A DNA stretch of 64,000 nt from Escherichia coli (GTDB taxonomy: Bacteria > Pseudomonadota > Gammaproteobacteria > Enterobacterales > Enterobacteriaceae): the NCBI RefSeq assembly GCF_003334355.1, contig NZ_QOWP01000009.1. The stretch is one strand, 5' to 3'. Shown in pieces: positions 1-61,590 of the stretch (positions are counted from its first letter, which is position 1; every line of letters begins with the position of its first letter). The position numbers were made by a program, and so were the translations under genes. A model generated the notes under the pieces. That model did not search any database, had not been told where the DNA came from, and saw nothing but the letters and a program-made list of their open reading frames with translations.

Positions 1-158
1 AGCAGGGGATTGACCGGATGGCCGGACGTCACTCCGCCGGGGCACACCGAACAGGCCACGCCGGTGGGGGCACCAATACGTACCCCGGCTGAACCCTGAA
101 CAATGCTACCGCCATACTGCGTCATGTCACCCTGACGCGCCGCCGGTTTTCCGCTCAT
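1..158 (-). CDS. rhsB: Rhs-family polymorphic toxin protein, N-terminal fragment (runs off window start)
   Basis: Reverse-complement of 1..158 translates MSGKPAARQGDMTQYGGSIVQGSAGVRIGAPTGVACSVCPGGVTSGHPVNPLL, the conserved N-terminus of E. coli Rhs proteins; start codon complement at 156..158; position next to nikR matches rhsB. Shorter than the ORF-track cutoff, so hand-translated. Confidence 0.8.
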   Translation of the reverse strand, partial: MSGKPAARQGDMTQYGGSIVQGSAGVRIGAPTGVACSVCPGGVTSGHPVNPL

Positions 159-360
159 CGTAAAATCCTTTTCTATTATTTTAATGACAGTATCTTCATA
201 CGAAAAAGCGAAGAAAAACTTGTGGTCACAATGAATTGAAGATTTTTAGGAATATATTTAGAACGTTACAAAAGAGAAGGTTCGGATAGGGTATTTAGAG
301 AGGAATCAGGTGTGCTAGTGGCCCTTTGTTGATCGTTCACCAAAGGACCCAATAATAGAC

Positions 361-3164
<2,804 letters not shown>

Positions 3165-3168
<4 letters not shown>

Positions 3169-4109
3169 GCGTGCGCTCCTTCATGACGACGAATGCGCGG
3201 GTCCAGCGCGGCGTTGAGCAAATCGACAATCAAATTACAGACCACAAAAACCACCACCATCATCAGCGTAAAGCACTGGATCACCGGATAGTCACGGTTA
3301 AAAATCGCCGACACCGCATAGCGCCCGACGCCCGGCCAGGCAAAGATGTTTTCGATAATCATCGTCCCGCCAATCAGTTCGCCGATGTGCATCCCCACGG
3401 CGGTGATCATCGGCAGCGAGGCATTGCGCAGGATGTGGCGACGTTCGGTCTGTTTGTCGTTCAGGCCGCGCAGACGCGCCCAGGTGACGTGACGCTGACC
3501 GGCGACGTCCAGCATACTGGCGCGCAGTAAACGCGCGTTAATCGCCAGCGACATAAAGGCAATGGAAACCGCAGGCAAAATGATGTGCTGCCAGCCGCCG
3601 TAACCCATCGCGGGTAGCCATTGCAGATACACCGAAAACGCCATCACCAGTAAAAACGCCAGCCAGAAGTTAGGCATCGACACGCCAAGAAACGCGATGA
3701 AACGTACGGCGAAATCCGGCAGACGGTCGCGATGGCGCGCCGCCCAGATACCGAGCGGTACGGAAGTGAGCAGAATTAATACCAGCGCCGCACCTGCAAG
3801 TTCCAGCGTGGCGGGCAGGAAGTTCAGCATATCGTCCAGTACCGGGCGTTGGCTGGCGAATGAGATACCAAAGTCAAGATGCAGCGCCTTCCACAACCAG
3901 GTGCCGTACTGGACGTACAGCGGCTGATCCAGTCCCAGCATGGTGCGGGTAGAGGCCAGCATCTCCGGCGTCGGCGGCAGGTTAGACAGACGCAAATAAT
4001 CGAGCGCCGGGTCGCCGGTACCGAGGCGCAGCATCAGAAAAATGATCACCGAGGCGGCGAGCACCATCGGGATCAGCAGCAGAAAGCGGCGTAATACGTA
4101 ACGCAACAT
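3165..4109 (-). CDS. nikB: Nickel ABC transporter permease NikB
   Basis: 314 aa hydrophobic ORF; overlaps nikC by 4 bp. Confidence 0.92.
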
Positions 4110-35548: not shown

Positions 35549-36723
35549 TTTGTGTGGTCCATAATATTTTTCATGGGAGGATAAATTGAGCCAGATGGAA
35601 TGGCCCAGGGAGTGATTTTGCTTTCACCTACTAATATTCCCTTAGCTATTCGTGATTGTATGTTAGTAAAAACTTTATGATATGGTTCGTTTTCGATTAA
35701 TACTAAATTTTCGAAATCATTAGTACCACCATCATCTAGAGATAGTTTATGGTGAACATTATAATTTAGAGGAACATTGCCCTTTCTCATTCTTAAAAGG
35801 TCTTCGGCGTTGAATCTTCCAGATGCTTCGGAGGTTTTTGCAAGTTTGATAAGAAAATTTTTTCTTACAGTTTTATTAAACTCCTTTCGTAAGTTAGCTA
35901 AGTCTTTTGAAGGTCTCTTAATGTATATTATTTCTATTATGTCTATACCATCAAGAAGTTTTTGTTGACCTCTAAGTTTGCCTAAGTAACTATTTATTTC
36001 TGTATATGTATCAACATTATAACGCTTTGTTAAAAGAATAGATGCTGTTGCTATCGCTATGCCCGCTGTTTTTTCATTTAGTATTTGATCATAGCCTTTT
36101 ATTGCATCTCCACCCAGTTTTTCCGCAGTATCTCTGAATCCTTCAATGTTCCCATTGTATACGCCACCAGCAGCAAGTAGCCTGCCAATAGCTTTGCTGT
36201 TTAACGTTTTGAAACGATTATTTGTTTGGTTTTTTGAATTTGGTAAAAACAAACGGTTATAATTTTCAGGGAGTGCCAAATAGCTGAACTCGGTATTTGC
36301 GATAAGATGTTGACAGAGGATAAATTCATAACTAATAGTTATTTTTTCTGTATCCAGTTGGTTTTCAATGATCTGGTGATGAATAGCCGATAAAAAAGCG
36401 CCTCTTAGTTGTATATAATAATACTTTTCCCATCTACCAAATCTATTTATTCGATAGAAGTCAAATCCCATAAATAATTGTTCATTATTGTTAATGGAAT
36501 TAATAAATAATGGAGTGCTTTTATCAATTAATTTACAAAATGTTATACCATGGAACTGTGAACCAAGCCCCGTATTATTAATATTATTTAAGAGTGAGAA
36601 TGTAAATGTTTCATCCTCATGCCCGCTCTGCCAACGATTACCTGTAGACTCAGAAGTCCCACAACCTGCGGAGATGCTTCCTTGTTGTTCTCCCGTTACT
36701 GTCAGGTAAACAATATTACTCAT
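35545..36723 (-). CDS. yhhZ: Hcp-domain protein fused to C-terminal HNH nuclease (Hcp-ET-like orphan T6SS effector)
   Basis: 392 aa ORF; N-terminal ~160 aa shows the Hcp pattern (MSNIVYLTVTGEQQGS...KLIDKSTPLF), C-terminus carries an HNH/beta-beta-alpha-Me motif (NYNVHHKLSLDDGGTNDFENLVLIENEPYH); markedly AT-rich versus flanking genes. Confidence 0.85.
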   Translation of the reverse strand: MSNIVYLTVTGEQQGSISAGCGTSESTGNRWQSGHEDETFTFSLLNNINNTGLGSQFHGITFCKLIDKSTPLFINSINNNEQLFMGFDFYRINRFGRWEKYYYIQLRGAFLSAIHHQIIENQLDTEKITISYEFILCQHLIANTEFSYLALPENYNRLFLPNSKNQTNNRFKTLNSKAIGRLLAAGGVYNGNIEGFRDTAEKLGGDAIKGYDQILNEKTAGIAIATASILLTKRYNVDTYTEINSYLGKLRGQQKLLDGIDIIEIIYIKRPSKDLANLRKEFNKTVRKNFLIKLAKTSEASGRFNAEDLLRMRKGNVPLNYNVHHKLSLDDGGTNDFENLVLIENEPYHKVFTNIQSRIAKGILVGESKITPWAIPSGSIYPPMKNIMDHTK

Positions 36724-37569: not shown

Positions 37570-37660
37570 GCGATCAGGAAGACCCTCGCGGAGAACCTGA
37601 AAGCACGACATTGCTCACATTGCTTCCAGTATTACTTAGCCAGCCGGGTGCTGGCTTTTT
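37570..37660 (+). ncRNA. ryhB: Iron-responsive small RNA RyhB
   Basis: GCGATCAGGAAGACCCTCGCGGAGAACCTGAAAGCACGACATTGCTCACATTGCTTCCAGTATTACTTAGCCAGCCGGGTGCTGGCTTTTTTTTT matches the RyhB sequence as I recall it; ends in hairpin GCCAGC-CGGGT-GCTGGC plus a T9 tract; lies between yhhY and yhhX. Confidence 0.9.
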
Positions 37661-37780
37661 TTTTGATCTTTCGTTCTCAATTTATCCACGGGAGTGCTTG
37701 TGTTCGTTATGCGCACTCCAGTAGGAACCACGTCCGCTTTGCGCTAAGGTGTAAATAACCACCTTAAAAAGGACGAAATC

Positions 37781-50552: not shown

Positions 50553-51985
50553 TGCAGGTTTTACATGTATGTTCAGAGATGTTCCCGCTGCTTAAAACCG
50601 GCGGTCTGGCTGATGTTATTGGGGCATTACCCGCAGCACAAATCGCAGACGGCGTTGACGCTCGCGTACTGTTGCCTGCATTTCCCGATATTCGCCGTGG
50701 CGTGACCGATGCGCAAGTAGTATCCCGTCGTGATACCTTCGCCGGACATATCACGCTGTTGTTCGGTCATTACAACGGGGTTGGCATATACCTGATTGAC
50801 GCGCCGCATCTCTATGATCGTCCGGGAAGCCCGTATCACGATACCAACTTATTTGCCTATACCGACAACGTATTGCGTTTTGCGCTGCTGGGGTGGGTTG
50901 GGGCAGAAATGGCCAGCGGGCTTGACCCATTCTGGCGTCCTGATGTGGTGCATGCGCACGACTGGCATGCAGGCCTTGCGCCTGCGTATCTGGCGGCGCG
51001 CGGGCGTCCGGCGAAGTCGGTGTTTACTGTGCACAACTTGGCCTATCAAGGCATGTTTTATGCACATCACATGAATGACATCCAATTGCCATGGTCATTC
51101 TTTAATATTCATGGGCTGGAATTCAACGGACAAATCTCTTTCCTGAAGGCCGGTCTGTACTATGCCGATCACATTACGGCGGTCAGTCCAACCTACGCTC
51201 GCGAGATCACCGAACCGCAGTTTGCCTACGGTATGGAAGGTCTGTTGCAACAGCGTCACCGTGAAGGGCGTCTTTCCGGCGTACTGAACGGCGTGGACGA
51301 GAAAATCTGGAGTCCTGAGACGGACTTACTGTTGGCCTCGCGTTACACCCGCGATACGTTGGAAGATAAAGCGGAAAATAAGCGCCAGTTACAAATCGCA
51401 ATGGGGCTTAAGGTTGACGATAAAGTGCCGCTTTTTGCAGTGGTGAGCCGTCTGACCAGCCAGAAAGGTCTCGACCTGGTGCTGGAAGCCTTACCGGGCC
51501 TTCTGGAGCAGGGCGGGCAGCTGGCGCTACTCGGCGCGGGCGATCCGGTGCTGCAGGAAGGTTTCCTTGCGGCGGCAGCGGAATACCCCGGTCAGGTGGG
51601 CGTTCAGATTGGCTATCACGAAGCATTTTCGCATCGCATTATGGGCGGCGCGGACGTCATTCTGGTGCCCAGCCGTTTTGAACCGTGCGGCTTAACGCAA
51701 CTTTATGGATTGAAGTACGGTACGCTGCCGTTAGTGCGGCGCACCGGTGGGCTTGCTGATACGGTTTCTGACTGTTCTCTTGAGAACCTTGCAGATGGCG
51801 TCGCCAGTGGGTTTGTCTTTGAAGATAGTAATGCCTGGTCGCTGTTACGGGCTATTCGGCGTGCTTTTGTACTGTGGTCCCGTCCTTCACTGTGGCGGTT
51901 TGTGCAACGTCAGGCTATGGCAATGGATTTTAGCTGGCAGGTCGCGGCGAAGTCGTACCGTGAGCTTTACTATCGCTTGAAATAG
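50552..51985 (+). CDS. glgA: Glycogen synthase GlgA
   Basis: 477 aa ORF; KTGGL motif near the N-terminus. Confidence 0.95.
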
Positions 51986-54451
<2,466 letters not shown>

Positions 54452-54466
54452 TTTCACTAATAAATA

Positions 54467-54495
54467 GAACGGGGCCAAAGGGTCCCGTTTTTTTC
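54467..54495 (+). terminator. Rho-independent terminator after glgP
   Basis: Hairpin AACGGGGCC-AAAG-GGTCCCGTT followed by TTTTTTT. Confidence 0.7.
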
Positions 54496-54566
54496 GCCAT
54501 CATTTCGGAAAAGTGTCCAGAAGGGGCAAGGGGACTCGGGGAGTATAATTTCGCCATTCAGAAAGA

Positions 54567-56083
54567 ATGGAAAGAATAATGCAAAACAGAAAATGGATTT
54601 TGACCTCGCTGGTAATGACTTTTTTCGGCATCCCCATTCTGGCGCAGTTTTTGGCGGCGGTTATTGCCATGCTGGGTGTCGGACTTGCCGGTATTATTGA
54701 AGTTTGTAATATCTTTATCACGCCAACAATTTACCTTCTGCTCAACGTCTTTATGCTGACGCTGGGGGCGATAATAATATTTTTCTCTGGTCGCGTGTGG
54801 GCCGGTGATAGCGCGCCAGAAAACAGAGAAATAGCCGTCTGGCGGCAATGCTTTTTTCTCTTACCCGCGCTATTAACCCTGGTTGGCTGGATAATCACGC
54901 TACATCTGGCAGATTATCAATTTCGCCAGATGGGAGCTGGTTGGTTGGCAAACCTTATGCTTCCCTGGTTGGCGTTTTTTTAGTCTCATTAGTGGGTGGT
55001 GAGTACTGGTGGATGGTCATTATTCCCGTTGGGGCGCATATCAGTTTTTCGCTGGGATACGCCTGGCCGACCAGATATCCTTTATCCGGCACGTCCGGAC
55101 TACGTTGCCGTAACTTACTCCTGTTTCTACTTCTCTTACTTGGTATTGTCGCCGGGTATCAGGCCCATTTATATAAGCAGCAAAATCCTGGTGTCGGTGT
55201 ACGCGAAAATATTGATATCTGGGCCTGGCGACCCGATAAACTCAATAATCGACTGACGCCGCTGCGTGGCAAACCGCAAATTCAGTTTAGGCAAAACTGG
55301 CCGCGAATCGATGGCGCCACGGCTGCGTACCCAATTTATGCTTCTGCATTTTATGCATTAAGTGTAATACCAGAGGATTTTCACGTTTGGGATTATCTGG
55401 AAAACTCTCGTACGCCAGAAGCATATAACAAAATCGTTAAGGGCGATGCTGATATTATTTTCGTGGCGCAACCTTCCGGTGGGCAAAAAAAACGTGCAAA
55501 GGAATCTGGTGTCACTTTGCTGTACACCCCCTTTGCCCGTGAAGCATTCGTTTTCATCGTCAATGCGGATAATCCGGTTAATTCCCTGACTGAACAACAG
55601 GTGCGTGACATTTTCAGTGGTGCAATTACCAATTGGCGTGCTGTTGGCGGTAACGATCAGGAGATCCAGACCTGGCAGCGCCCGGAAGACTCTGGCAGCC
55701 AGACAGTGATGCAATCACAGGTCATGAAAAATGTCCGCATGATCTCGCCGCAGGAAACGAAAGTGGCAAGCGTGATGGAGGGAATGATTAAAGTCGTTGC
55801 CGAATACCGTAATACAAACAACGCAATAGGCTATACCTTCCGCTATTACGCGACGCAAATGAATGCTGATAAAAATATAAAATTGCTAGCGATTAACGGT
55901 ATTACACCGACGGCGGAAAACATTCGCAACGGCAAATATGCGTACATCGTCGATGCATTTATGGTGACGAGAGAAAATACAACGTCAGAAACACAAAAAC
56001 TGGTCGAATGGTTTTTAACGCCGCAGGGGCAGAGTCTGGTAGAAGATGTGGGATATGTGCCGCTGTATCCAACAATGGAATAA
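54567..56083 (+). pseudogene. Membrane-anchored PstS-like periplasmic-binding-domain protein, apparently disrupted by a +1 frameshift at a T7 tract (yzgL-like locus)
   Basis: Frame A ORF 54567..54983 (multi-TM) ends at TAG inside a T7 run (54975..54981); frame B ORF 54848..56083 continues with TM-like segments and a C-terminal PBP/PstS-like domain (DSGSQT..AIGYTFRYY..YVPLY). One extra T would fuse them into a single ~505-aa ORF. TATAAT at 54544..54549. Confidence 0.5.
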
Positions 56084-56108
56084 CGCTCGAGAGAAAGGAA
56101 TCAGCGAG

Positions 56109-57101
56109 ATGAATAAATTCACCGGTGTTTTACTATTAGGCACGGCGTTACTGGCGGGATGTGTCGACCGGGAAGGGTACTATAACAGCGTTAGGGAAGA
56201 AGAGAGCCATGGACTGACGTCTCTGCGGGGGCAACCTGCATTACGTTACAGCGATGATTGGTCAAGATGGCCGAGAGTGTACGGCGCTACAGCCTTATAC
56301 CCGCTGTATGCCTCCGCGTATTATAAATTAGTACCCGAGCCAAAAGATAAGGATCGAACCTCGCTGGCCTGGCAGGCGTATGGTTTGCAGCAAACCCGAA
56401 CAGCTGAAGCCTACGATAGTCTGATTAAAGGTTCCGCGACGGTTATTTTTGTTGCACAACCGTCGGAAGGACAGAAAAAACGTGCAGAAGAAGCGGGTGT
56501 TAAACTGAAATATACCGCTTTCGCCCGCGAAGCCTTTGTCTTTATCGTTGATATTAATAACCCGGTAAATTCTCTCTCTGAGCACCAGGTTAAAGATATT
56601 TTTAGCGGCAAAACTAGCCGCTGGAATAAAGTAGGTGGTAGTGACGAACATATAAAAGTCTGGCAGCGCCCTGAAGATTCTGGAAGCCAAACGATTATGA
56701 AGGGGTTGGTTATGCAAGACACCCCAATGCTGCCAGCTAAAAAATCCACTGTGATTGATCTTATGGGCGGTTTAATTACTGAAGTTGCCGACTATCAAAA
56801 CACGCCATCTTCCATTGGGTACACCTTCCACTATTACGTCACTCGTATGAATGACAATATGCTCAAAATGCGCAAGCAGATTAAACTTTTGGCTATAAAT
56901 GGCGTTGCGCCTACCGAGGAAAATATCCGCAACGGCACTTATCCATACATTGTGGATGCCTATATGGTGACGCGTGAAAATCCCACGCCGGAAACGCAGA
57001 AATTTGTTGACTGGTTTATAAGTCAGCAGGGGCAACAGTTGGTAGAGGATGTGGGGTATGTGCCGCTGTATGAAGCATCCCCCGAATCATCAGGACAATA
57101 A
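56109..57101 (+). CDS. Lipoprotein with PstS-like periplasmic substrate-binding domain (paralog of the upstream gene's C-terminal domain)
   Basis: ORF track 56046..57101; start at ATG 56109 (MNKFTGVLLLGTALLAGC lipobox) after AAAGGA; the domain aligns by eye with 54848..56083 (AREAFVFIV, NPVNSL, WQRPEDSGSQT, IGYTF.YY, LLAINGV.PT.ENIRNG, VEDVGYVPLY). Confidence 0.7.
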   Translation: MNKFTGVLLLGTALLAGCVDREGYYNSVREEESHGLTSLRGQPALRYSDDWSRWPRVYGATALYPLYASAYYKLVPEPKDKDRTSLAWQAYGLQQTRTAEAYDSLIKGSATVIFVAQPSEGQKKRAEEAGVKLKYTAFAREAFVFIVDINNPVNSLSEHQVKDIFSGKTSRWNKVGGSDEHIKVWQRPEDSGSQTIMKGLVMQDTPMLPAKKSTVIDLMGGLITEVADYQNTPSSIGYTFHYYVTRMNDNMLKMRKQIKLLAINGVAPTEENIRNGTYPYIVDAYMVTRENPTPETQKFVDWFISQQGQQLVEDVGYVPLYEASPESSGQ

Positions 57102-57703
57102 TGATGAATATAATCAGACTTTATATTTATCCGTTATTTCTCGGCTTTGTTATTGTGCCGTTGTTGGTGTGGCCGATGGTGGTTGCGCTGGCTGCTTGTA
57201 TTATCACGCTGAGTTTTCTGGGGGAAATGCTGTTCTCAATCCCGCTCATGATCAGGCGTATTTCACTTCTGCAATTACAACTTTGGTTATCGGCTGAATA
57301 TGCGCTTTTCTTCTGTGTAATGTGTTGCGTTGGTTGGCAATTTACTCGTAGAACTCAATCTGAATTGAAAAGCAGGCTCCATTGTTGATTGGTATTCGCA
57401 CCGATCTATTTATGGTTGATCCTCTGGAATATCATTTTTTACATCGCGCCAGCGAAAATTGCGTTGCTGGAAAGTATCCGCAATTTCTTTCTGCTTGTTG
57501 TCTGGCTACCCCTGAATTTTTCGCCATTTTGGCCTCAGCCGTGGACGGATTTTATCGGTCCAATAAGCGCACAGCTTGGTTTTGCGTTGGGATATTATTG
57601 CCAGTGGTGCAGCAAAAATAGATGCCAGATACGGAAGTTGAGTGAGTGGGGAACGTGCTTAAGTTTTGTTACGTTGGGTATGATGGCGTGGGCTTTGCGG
57701 TAA
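57101..57703 (+). pseudogene. Small polytopic membrane protein ORF interrupted by an in-frame TGA (two ORF-track pieces 57101..57388 and 57389..57703)
   Basis: ATG 57101 overlaps the stop of the upstream lipoprotein gene (TAATG); ORF reads through to TGA at 57386..57388 and continues in the same frame from 57389 to 57703. The distal part (GPISAQLGFALGYYCQW) resembles the membrane segment of 54567..56083 (PVGAHISFSLGYAWPTR). Confidence 0.35.
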
Positions 57704-57747
57704 TTCCCTGAATCAAAAAGTAGGTCAGATTGTTGACAACGTGGCGC

Positions 57748-57846
57748 TTTGTTCATGCCTGATGCGGCGCGAACGCCTTATCAGGCCTACAAAATCATGC
57801 AAATTCAATATATTGTATAAACAACGTAGGCCAGATAAGCGTAGCG
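57748..57846. repeat. REP/BIME: two inverted REP units downstream of glpD
   Basis: GCCTGATGCGGCGCGAACGCCTTATCAGGCCTACA (57748..57782) and CGTAGGCCAGATAAGCGTAGCGCATCTGGCA (57816..57846); a 10-bp stem hairpin follows at 57870..57893. Confidence 0.85.
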
Positions 57847-57918
57847 CATCTGGCAGTTTTTTGGTTTGTCATCAGTCTCAGGTCAGATTGAAATCTGACC
57901 TGGCCACCTTACATTAAA

Positions 57919-59424
57919 TCACGACGCCAGCGACAGCTTCTGCTGCGTATACTCCACCAGCCACTGACTCACACGAGATTGTTGATCCGCATTTAGCCAC
58001 ATGCCTTGTTTTGTGCGACGCCACAGGGCGTCGTCGGCGCGGCGGACCCATTCGTGATCCACCAGGTATTTCAGCTCCGCTTCGTAGAACTCATGACCGA
58101 AATCTTCCCCGAGATCGCTTACCGTTCCCGCATTGCCGAGCAGCAGCTCGCTGTTGCTGCCGTAAGTGCGAGCGTAATGACGCGCCAGCGATTCAGTCAG
58201 GAACGGATAGCGGCGGCGCAGGCGAGCGGCATAATCGTCGCGGTCGCCTTCAATGGCGCCACCCGGTAGCACACTCTCTTTCGTCCATGCCGGGCCAATA
58301 CCCTGATAATACGGCGTTAGTTTTTCCAGCGCATGTTCCGCCAGTTTTCGGTAGGTGGTCAGCTTACCGCCGAATACCGACAGCAGCGGTGCTTTGCCAT
58401 TTTCATCATGAATATCAAGGGTGTAATCACGGGTAATAGCCTGCGGCGAGTCGGACTCATCATCACACAGCGGACGCACACCGGAGTAGGTCCAGACGAT
58501 ATCGTCACGGCTTAACTGCTTTTTAAAGTGCGTGTTATACACATTCAGCAGGTAATTGATTTCACTCTCTTCAATCTTCACCGCTTTCGGATCGCCTTTG
58601 TACTCGACATCGGTAGTGCCGATGATGGAAAACTCGTCCATCCACGGGATCACGAACACAATACGTTTATCTTCGTTTTGCAGAATGTAGGCTTGCTTCT
58701 GGGTATGCACGCGCGGCACCACAATATGGCTGCCTTTGATCAGGCGAATGCCATAAGGCGAAGGCAGATGCATCCCGTCGTCGAAGAACTGTTTCACCCA
58801 CGGGCCGGTGGCGTTAACCAAGCCGCGCGCTTGCCAGCTATATTTTTTGCCGGTATCGATATCTTCCGCTTCCACAATCCACAGGCCGTTTTCGCGGCGA
58901 GCAGAGGTGGCGCGAGTCCGAGTAAGCACTTCGCCGCCTTTACGCACCACCATCTGGGCGTTGGCGAGTACCAGACGGGCGTCGTCTACCCAACAGTCAG
59001 AATATTCGAATCCGCGCTTAATTTCCGGTTTTAACACTGAATTTGCGCCAAAACGCAAACCAGTTGATCCCGGCAAGCTGGTGCGTTTACCCAGATGATC
59101 GTACATAAACAGACCAATGCGAATCATCCACGCCGGGCGCAGATGCGGACGATGTGGCAGGCGAAAACGCATCGGGAAGGCGATATGCGGGGCCATTTTC
59201 AGCAGCACTTCACGTTCAGCCAGCGCCTCGCTGACCAGGCGGAATTCATAGTGCTCAAGGTAGCGCAGGCCACCGTGAATGAGTTTTGAACTGGCGGAAG
59301 AGGTCGCGCAAGCGAGATCCTGCGCCTCCAGCATCAGCACGGATAAACCGCGTCCAGCGGCGTCTGCCGCGATACCAGCACCATTGATGCCGCCCCCTAT
59401 CACAATCAGATCTTTGGTTTCCAT
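57919..59424 (-). CDS. glpD: Aerobic glycerol-3-phosphate dehydrogenase GlpD
   Basis: ORF track 57919..59439; start at internal Met (METKDLIVIGGGINGAG, FAD-binding GxGxxG) gives 501 aa. Confidence 0.94.
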   Translation of the reverse strand: METKDLIVIGGGINGAGIAADAAGRGLSVLMLEAQDLACATSSASSKLIHGGLRYLEHYEFRLVSEALAEREVLLKMAPHIAFPMRFRLPHRPHLRPAWMIRIGLFMYDHLGKRTSLPGSTGLRFGANSVLKPEIKRGFEYSDCWVDDARLVLANAQMVVRKGGEVLTRTRATSARRENGLWIVEAEDIDTGKKYSWQARGLVNATGPWVKQFFDDGMHLPSPYGIRLIKGSHIVVPRVHTQKQAYILQNEDKRIVFVIPWMDEFSIIGTTDVEYKGDPKAVKIEESEINYLLNVYNTHFKKQLSRDDIVWTYSGVRPLCDDESDSPQAITRDYTLDIHDENGKAPLLSVFGGKLTTYRKLAEHALEKLTPYYQGIGPAWTKESVLPGGAIEGDRDDYAARLRRRYPFLTESLARHYARTYGSNSELLLGNAGTVSDLGEDFGHEFYEAELKYLVDHEWVRRADDALWRRTKQGMWLNADQQSRVSQWLVEYTQQKLSLAS

Positions 59425-59457
59425 GCTGCCCTCATTCACTTTCGTTAAAGCTCATAA

Positions 59458-59475
59458 ATGTTCGTTATCGAACAT
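59458..59475. promoter_or_regulatory. GlpR operator in the glpD/glpE divergent control region
   Basis: Perfect inverted repeat ATGTTCG-TTAT-CGAACAT, matching the GlpR operator half-site TGTTCGAT-like consensus, 34-51 bp upstream of the glpD start. Confidence 0.6.
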
Positions 59476-59535
59476 ATTAGCAAAGAATCGCGCTTTAGGT
59501 AACATTGAAAAAACATTTTAGAGTGATATGTATAA

Positions 59536-59940
<405 letters not shown>

Positions 59941-59972
59941 CGCTTTATACTGTCCCCTTTTGTGTGGAATAA

Positions 59973-60815
<843 letters not shown>

Positions 60816-60831
60816 TTCCAGGGATTTATAA

Positions 60832-61590
60832 ATGAAACAAACACAACGTCACAACGGTATTATCGAACTGGTTAAACAGCAGGGTTATGTCAGTACCGAA
60901 GAGCTGGTAGAGCATTTCTCCGTCAGCCCGCAGACTATTCGCCGCGACCTCAATGAGCTGGCGGAGCAAAACCTGATCCTGCGCCATCATGGCGGTGCGG
61001 CGCTGCCTTCCAGTTCGGTTAACACGCCGTGGCACGATCGCAAGGCCACCCAGACCGAAGAAAAAGAGCGCATCGCCCGCAAAGTGGCGGAGCAAATCCC
61101 CAATGGCTCGACGCTGTTTATCGATATCGGCACCACGCCGGAAGCGGTAGCGCACGCACTGCTCAATCACAGCAATTTGCGCATTGTCACCAACAATCTC
61201 AACGTTGCTAACACGTTGATGGTAAAAGAAGATTTTCGCATCATTCTCGCCGGTGGCGAATTACGCAGCCGCGATGGCGGGATCATTGGCGAAGCGACGC
61301 TCGATTTTATCTCCCAGTTCCGCCTTGATTTCGGCATTCTGGGGATAAGCGGCATCGATAGCGACGGCTCGCTGCTGGAGTTCGATTACCACGAAGTTCG
61401 CACCAAACGCGCCATTATTGAGAACTCGCGCCACGTTATGCTGGTTGTCGATCACTCGAAATTTGGCCGTAACGCGATGGTCAATATGGGCAGCATCAGC
61501 ATGGTAGATGCCGTCTACACCGACGCCCAGCCGCCAGTAAGCGTGATGCAGGTGCTGACGGACCACCATATTCAACTGGAGCTGTGCTGA
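60832..61590 (+). CDS. glpR: Glycerol-3-phosphate regulon repressor GlpR (DeoR family)
   Basis: 252 aa ORF with N-terminal DeoR HTH (ELVEHFSVSPQTIRRDLNEL). Confidence 0.93.
   Translation: MKQTQRHNGIIELVKQQGYVSTEELVEHFSVSPQTIRRDLNELAEQNLILRHHGGAALPSSSVNTPWHDRKATQTEEKERIARKVAEQIPNGSTLFIDIGTTPEAVAHALLNHSNLRIVTNNLNVANTLMVKEDFRIILAGGELRSRDGGIIGEATLDFISQFRLDFGILGISGIDSDGSLLEFDYHEVRTKRAIIENSRHVMLVVDHSKFGRNAMVNMGSISMVDAVYTDAQPPVSVMQVLTDHHIQLELC

Follow-up and report, generated by a model that had tools for sequence, protein, structure and literature searches.

When two reading frames meet at a homopolymer, is the junction a site at which ribosome or polymerase switches frame, or is it the trace of a mutation that broke a gene? 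The question is raised by a locus in a stretch of 64,000 nucleotides (nt) of Escherichia coli DNA (contig NZ_QOWP01000009.1), referred to below as the window, which is E. coli chromosome of a phylogroup-A-like kind. Here an open reading frame (ORF) for several membrane helices terminates in a TAG to which a run of seven T (T7) contributes its last base, and a second frame that carries a binding domain continues beyond it. We call the two frames together gene 1, the first gene of a three-gene accessory cluster between glgP and glpD. From the evidence set out below we conclude, with a probability of about 0.9, that gene 1 is a recent, lineage-specific and non-programmed frameshift pseudogene, belonging to an accessory cluster that is prone to decay, and that gene 1 was broken by the loss of one G. 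The features on which the argument turns are the following.

54567–54983, + strand: 5′ fragment of gene 1 (from the ORF list), 138 amino acids (aa) from the ATG at 54567 or 134 aa from the ATG at 54579
54971–54972, + strand: the actual lesion, GG where every intact orthologue has GGG, in the codon for Gly136 (GGC)
54975–54981, + strand: the T7 homopolymer, of wild-type length; the intact gene reads GTT TTT TTA (Val-Phe-Leu)
54981–54983, + strand: premature TAG resulting from the frameshift, the last T of T7 being the first base of the stop codon
54984–56083, + strand: 3′ fragment of gene 1, in the −1 frame (from the ORF list, Pfam and Foldseek)

A G is missing beside the T tract

Positions 54960–54989 read CTTCCCTGGTTGGCGTTTTTTTAGTCTCAT, and the T7 stands in the context ...CTTCCCTGGTTGGCGTTTTTTTAGTCTC... 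One base added or re-read at T7 fuses the 54567–54983 ORF to the −1 frame ending at 56083 and yields 505 aa, which differ from the intact orthologue only by G136A and V137F. The original prediction therefore had the coordinates of T7 and TAG right, together with the arithmetic of a one-base fusion of about 505 aa, and the ORF list and Pfam agree with it that the downstream frame carries the binding domain. The 5′ fragment spans the first four to five membrane helices, as judged from hydropathy and an AlphaFold model, and its 138-aa product is identical to residues 1–135 of the intact 505-aa orthologue, the final AFF being derived from the frameshift. The 3′ fragment encodes the remaining two to three membrane helices together with a PstS-like (PBP_like_2) periplasmic domain, in the same sequence as the intact orthologue. 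Its frame is open from 54812 and has a first ATG at 54848 (ORF 54848–56083, 411 aa), and gene callers place its start at the ATG at 55013, which gives 356 aa. As a homopolymer T7 is statistically unremarkable, being one of 15 runs of at least seven A or T in the window. An A8 run at 55485–55492 (GGGCAAAAAAAACGT) in the same gene exceeds it and is intact in the window and absent from the O157 allele; the longest homopolymer of the window is a T9 at 37656–37664, in the yhhY–yhhX intergenic region.

To locate the missing base, we aligned the site with the intact orthologues of O157:H7, ATCC 8739, 13P484A, PSS-12 and 1297KP and with five divergent alleles. T7 is also present in the five intact orthologues, which read CTGGTTGGGCGTTTTTTTAG, and the window reads CTGGTTGGCGTTTTTTTAG at the same site, with one G of GGG gone; the assignment of the missing base to the GGG run is unambiguous. 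The intact reading TTG GGC GTT TTT TTA GTC (L G V F L V) thus becomes TTG GCG TTT TTT TAG (L A F F stop). In the divergent alleles GGG is always present and the T run is interrupted, to TTTTGTT or TTTTTAC (GTTTTGTTA in LB19b, EC17CM7 and 13E0725; GTTTTTACA in N1131 and MRY15-117), so that T7 is ordinary coding sequence and not a conserved element. The original prediction had offered a slippage-type pseudogenising mutation in the T tract, and of this the one-base pseudogenising mutation stands. Slippage in the T tract of the window does not, as T7 is shared by every intact allele of the haplotype and what has gone is a G of the GGG next to it. The comparison of tract length among orthologues likewise gives T7 as the wild-type length, with no tract change in the window.

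That the two frames are the halves of one gene is supported on a wider scale. A single 502-aa coding sequence (CDS) is annotated in O157:H7, ATCC 8739, 13P484A, PSS-12, 1297KP, LB19b, N1131, EC17CM7 and MRY15-117. Orthologues combining T7 with two separate proteins, an outcome for which the original prediction had allowed, were not seen; those with T7 have the one 502-aa CDS. Full-length homologues of about 500 aa (490–517 aa) occur across the Enterobacterales in E. albertii, Klebsiella, Salmonella, Intestinirhabdus, Phytobacter, Leminorella, Budviciaceae and others, and because they extend across genera, the fused single ORF of about 505 aa is the ancestral form.

To determine how common the deletion is, we searched 5,426 complete E. 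coli genomes for exact matches to probes of 73–75 nt that carry the haplotype of the window, with the following result for each combination of G and T run lengths.

G3T7 allele (74-mer): 455 exact matches
G2T7 allele, that of the window (73-mer): 0 exact matches
G3T6 allele: 0 exact matches
G3T8 allele: 0 exact matches

Among the 60 G3T7 matches listed, the 59 sampled at full length all spanned exactly the length of the query, without an indel. Because T6 and T8 were both at zero and these matches carried no indel, there is no tract-length polymorphism of the phase-variation type on this haplotype. As would be expected of a pseudogene, the deletion is derived and phylogenetically restricted (G2T7 in none of the 5,426 genomes against 455 matches for G3T7, with G3 in the nearest genome), and the close orthologues are one uninterrupted ORF. 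That nearest genome, PSS-12, differs from the 64-kb window by nine substitutions and a single indel, which is the lost G; it is identical to the window over the 24.9 kb upstream, carries G3, and shares the longer homopolymers unchanged. PSS-12 also has an insertion sequence (IS), IS5, at window positions of about 35898–35902, within a degraded hcp/tssD remnant of type VI secretion, which the window lacks.

Moreover, exact look-up of the shortened products recovered a Logan contig of 82 kb (from ERR4578542, in five samples) that is 100% identical to window positions 50579–61388 (10.8 kb), G2T7 included. Gene calls on this contig show the same split into 134 aa and 356 aa. The 134-aa product of gene 1, which begins at the second ATG, was recorded on three contigs, and the look-up of the 138-aa form gave no record.

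Taken together, these observations give the course of events. In the lineage of the strain, gene 1 lost one G from the codon for Gly136, with a T7 of normal length lying three bases downstream; the shifted frame meets the TAG at the end of the T tract, and translation stops inside membrane helix 5. The binding domain is left stranded in the −1 frame without a proper start of its own. The frameshift falls within the helix of residues 132–144, so that in the shortened product the binding domain is missing altogether, along with two to three helices.

Loss of a T from the same tract in other lineages

The T tract itself has been hit elsewhere. A 135-aa product ending in ...LPWLGVF and named from Shigella dysenteriae (SPZ82146.1) is found on 192 contigs, and its DNA is G3T6, with one T lost and the same TAG stop (loci L020–L027, site at about 3885–3906). 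G3T6 occurs in S. dysenteriae-type genomes of 4.39 Mb, where IS1 lies next to it and has deleted the gene further, and also in one O157-like contig, whose sequence over 7 kb is in every other respect that of O157:H7. Given these two occurrences, T7>T6 probably arose more than once. The T6 allele is much like that of the window, being a one-base deletion at most 9 bp away that leads to the same −1 frame, the same TAG and similar pieces of 134/135 aa and 356 aa, but it loses a T of the homopolymer, whereas the window has lost a G of the neighbouring GGG. Because the haplotype backgrounds differ, the two deletions are independent. Since T7>T6 breaks the same gene in other lineages, T7 is a real slippage hot spot, though it is not the lesion of the window; the T-tract slippage put forward in the original prediction holds for the tract in those lineages and fails as the cause here.

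Wider decay of the cluster

The other two genes of the cluster follow directly on gene 1.

56109–57101, + strand: gene 2, a PstS-like paralogue of lipoprotein type (330 aa; WP_001032214.1 in relatives), intact in the window
57101–57703, + strand: gene 3, a 200-aa membrane protein with an in-frame TGA at 57386–57388, where orthologues have TGG

The cluster occupies the interval between glgP (52004–54451, + strand) and glpD (57919–59439, − strand), in the module order membrane–binding, binding, membrane. In relatives it is annotated as a 502-aa 'PstS family phosphate ABC (ATP-binding cassette) transporter substrate-binding protein', its 330-aa paralogue and a 200-aa hypothetical protein. The region has a match in 4,640 of the 5,426 complete genomes of E. 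coli, and in 3,343 of these the match extends over 80% or more of its length. The glgP–glpD interval is a variable spot: in other E. coli (loci L008 and L009, 3820–5300) two unrelated soluble hypothetical proteins of 236 and 255 aa replace gene 2, and genes 1 and 3 are retained. Defence-system models (PADLOC) gave no match for any protein of the cluster or of this alternative cassette, and a scan of the cluster for promoters and terminators returned counts at the shuffle expectation.

The deletion in gene 1 is part of a wider decay of this cluster, gene 3 having been inactivated as well, through a nonsense mutation. Its TGA (W96*) is TGG in all the intact orthologues, and a G>A change follows at 57404 (Val>Ile). 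The shortened 95-aa product of gene 3 was found on 15 contigs, some of them of other backgrounds (L014 and L015, with G at 57404). As this allele is more widespread than that of gene 1 (15 contigs versus 3 for the 134-aa product), we infer that the nonsense mutation in gene 3 probably preceded the deletion in gene 1. Moreover, four of the 10 differences between the window and PSS-12 (the sole indel and three of the nine substitutions) lie in the 3.1 kb of the cluster (54480–57800), one of the three substitutions being specific to PSS-12. This clustering is consistent with relaxed selection or with a small recombination patch.

Other genomes show further and independent disruptions. IS1, IS2 and IS66 have inserted in the cluster, 13E0725 has a frameshift in gene 1 and N1131 one in gene 3, and a deletion in 88-3493 fuses gene 1 with gene 3. 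In K-12-type genomes only the first 322 nt or so of the query region are left, annotated as yzgL. The yzgL pseudogene is thus the same locus and gene in another decayed state of the cluster; K-12 has most of the cluster deleted, whereas in the window the three genes are all present, one with a single base deleted and another with a nonsense mutation. A literature search on yzgL found no functional study. The repeated independent disruption of the cluster in E. coli and Shigella, which ranges from single-base deletions 9 bp from each other through the insertion of IS elements to deletions of greater extent, suggests that it is dispensable or counter-selected in many niches, and relaxed selection is the cause that we infer for its decay.

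The product of the intact gene

Residues 247–485 of gene 1 match Pfam PF12849 (PBP_like_2; E = 2e-29). The domain falls short of the narrower PstS family, scoring 122 bits with NCBIfam TIGR02136 against a cut-off of 206.6, and so belongs only to the broader PBP_like_2 group. An AlphaFold model built with 41 homologues (predicted local distance difference test, pLDDT, 85) shows six to seven long helices (residues 2–206) followed by a PstS fold, for which the top Foldseek matches are solved phosphate-binding proteins (E = 7.5e-15, target-normalised template modelling score, TM-score, up to 0.80). The segment QRPEDSGSQT, with the motif R-x-E-D-S-G-S, aligns with SREDGSGTRD of 4q8r and 4gd5. The modelled domain accordingly combines a PstS fold with the anion-binding Arg / Ser-Gly-Thr motif, the binding of a ligand being a prediction. 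In Pfam domain, fold and motif it is alike to the PstS / PBP_like_2 phosphate-binding proteins of ABC transporters. Genes for an ABC permease or ATPase were not found next to it, the neighbours being glgP, the paralogue, the small membrane protein and glpD.

The other modules of the cluster are related to gene 1. Gene 2 and the binding domain of gene 1 share 58% identity. The relationship of the upstream frame to the paralogous membrane module, on which the original prediction depended, is borne out by homology: hhalign aligns the membrane domain at the N terminus of gene 1 with gene 3 (probability 98.2%, E = 3e-14), and a second comparison supports this. Direct BLASTP between the two gave only a 12-residue match (E = 0.032), and it is profile–profile comparison that reveals the homology. 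Our best guess, drawn from these likenesses, is that the product of intact gene 1 would be a membrane-tethered oxyanion receptor.

Alternative explanations

From the sequence, the function of gene 1 is probably lost in the window. Several points nevertheless weigh against calling it a plain pseudogene. The sequence of the binding domain is intact; an ATG preceded by a weak GGTGAG lies 30 nt past the stop; and T7 could permit some rescue. In addition, the lesion is known from assembled sequence, and the five samples that share the Logan contig may be one strain sequenced again, in which case they show reproducibility and not spread in a population.

The explanation that survives best besides ours agrees with it on the origin of the allele and differs only on the consequence: the mutation would be genuine, and a leaky or split gene would keep some function, through non-programmed −1 slippage in the overlap of the frames (54812–54983) or through a 356-aa part made from the ATG at 55013. 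One report describes one-base deletions in E. coli test genes as being suppressed by non-programmed −1 frameshifting to an aggregate of 1–10% (PMC10861913). The overlap does contain a U7 ending in the stop, the sequence of the binding domain is unchanged, and membrane and binding modules also exist as separate proteins, as in genes 2 and 3. The break, however, lies inside a membrane helix and not between domains, and the partner membrane module, gene 3, is knocked out, so that the system is seemingly not maintained. We consider residual function of this kind unlikely. It is likewise doubtful that the allele is a leaky hypomorph in which the pre-existing U7 gives partial rescue, by a slip or an extra U, as the G136A, V137F protein. 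The slipped product would be recognised by its predicted junction peptide, ...LPWLAFFLVSLVGG... / LPWLAFFLVSLVGGEYWW, and, if the explanation were true, the locus would be a natural instance, in a gene of the chromosome, of frameshift suppression of the adventitious 'savior' kind.

A sequencing or assembly error, with GGG in the true genome and the gene intact, is very unlikely. No complete RefSeq E. coli genome carries G2T7, and the lesion adjoins a homopolymer, where some platforms miscall length. An error of this kind would nevertheless have to account for the fact that the lost G is the only indel against PSS-12 in 64 kb, while the T7, A8 and T9 tracts are all unchanged, and for a separately assembled contig from other read sets, the Logan contig of five samples, that has the same deletion in 10.8 kb of identical sequence. 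The knockout of gene 3 in the same cluster is, moreover, a substitution. The homopolymer error that the original prediction had listed is therefore improbable, and the lesion is real in the DNA as far as assemblies can tell.

The remaining idea, that T7 is a programmed recoding site (a −1 ribosomal frameshift at U_UUU_UAG or the insertion of a U in transcription) or a contingency tract acting as an on/off switch of the gene, is extremely improbable, since the two-ORF layout is confined to the lineage of the window and the homologues are single ORFs. Its appeal is that a 505-aa protein two residues off the wild type would result if tRNA-Phe slipped by −1 on the UUU that precedes the stop, or if the mRNA gained one U, and that tract length has changed to T6 in other lineages. 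T7, however, already exists as coding sequence in intact alleles and is interrupted in others, and a slippery heptamer with overlapping ORFs is not conserved among the homologues. The 69 nt downstream fold with −15.7 kcal/mol, which at z = −0.63 is no better than shuffled sequences, and a Shine–Dalgarno-like motif is not visible in the 15 nt upstream, so that a stimulator was not found on either side. On the haplotype of the window we counted 455 T7, 0 T6 and 0 T8, which leaves no on/off polymorphism among close relatives, and T6 is seen only in a fixed or degraded state elsewhere, where it is a dead end as well, with IS1 deleting the gene further in S. dysenteriae-type genomes.

The comparison with known systems points in the same direction. 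dnaX-type −1 frameshifting and mxiE-type transcriptional slippage resemble the locus in having a homopolymer at the junction of overlapping frames, where a shift of one base gives the long product. In dnaX and mxiE the sites and the two-frame layout are conserved among homologues; the layout in the window is rare and derived, with a run of seven that is not conserved and no stimulator found. dnaX has stimulators. The mxiE run is about nine bases long (run lengths partly from PMC1088944). Programmed transcriptional slippage would call for a conserved A/T run of about eight to nine bases or more, and the seven-base run is short by comparison with the roughly 9 nt at which counter-selection of A/T runs, interpreted as an indicator of slippage, is evident in many bacterial genomes (PMC1088944). 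The frameshifting or phase-variation site envisaged in the original prediction consequently finds no support in layout, tract or RNA structure.

Meaning of the locus

A frameshift pseudogene produced by the loss of one G thus remains the explanation that we favour, and the lesion is ordinary in kind. The case is useful mainly as a correction: where two frames join at a homopolymer, slippage suggests itself, yet the orthologues show the tract untouched and the lesion adjacent to it. For annotation, positions 54567–56083 should be given as one frameshifted pseudogene and positions 57101–57703 as a second pseudogene with an internal stop, and not as four small genes. Finally, the locus adds a minor point of biology, in that, in E. 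coli and Shigella, independent events have repeatedly disrupted an uncharacterised pair of a membrane module and a PstS-like module.
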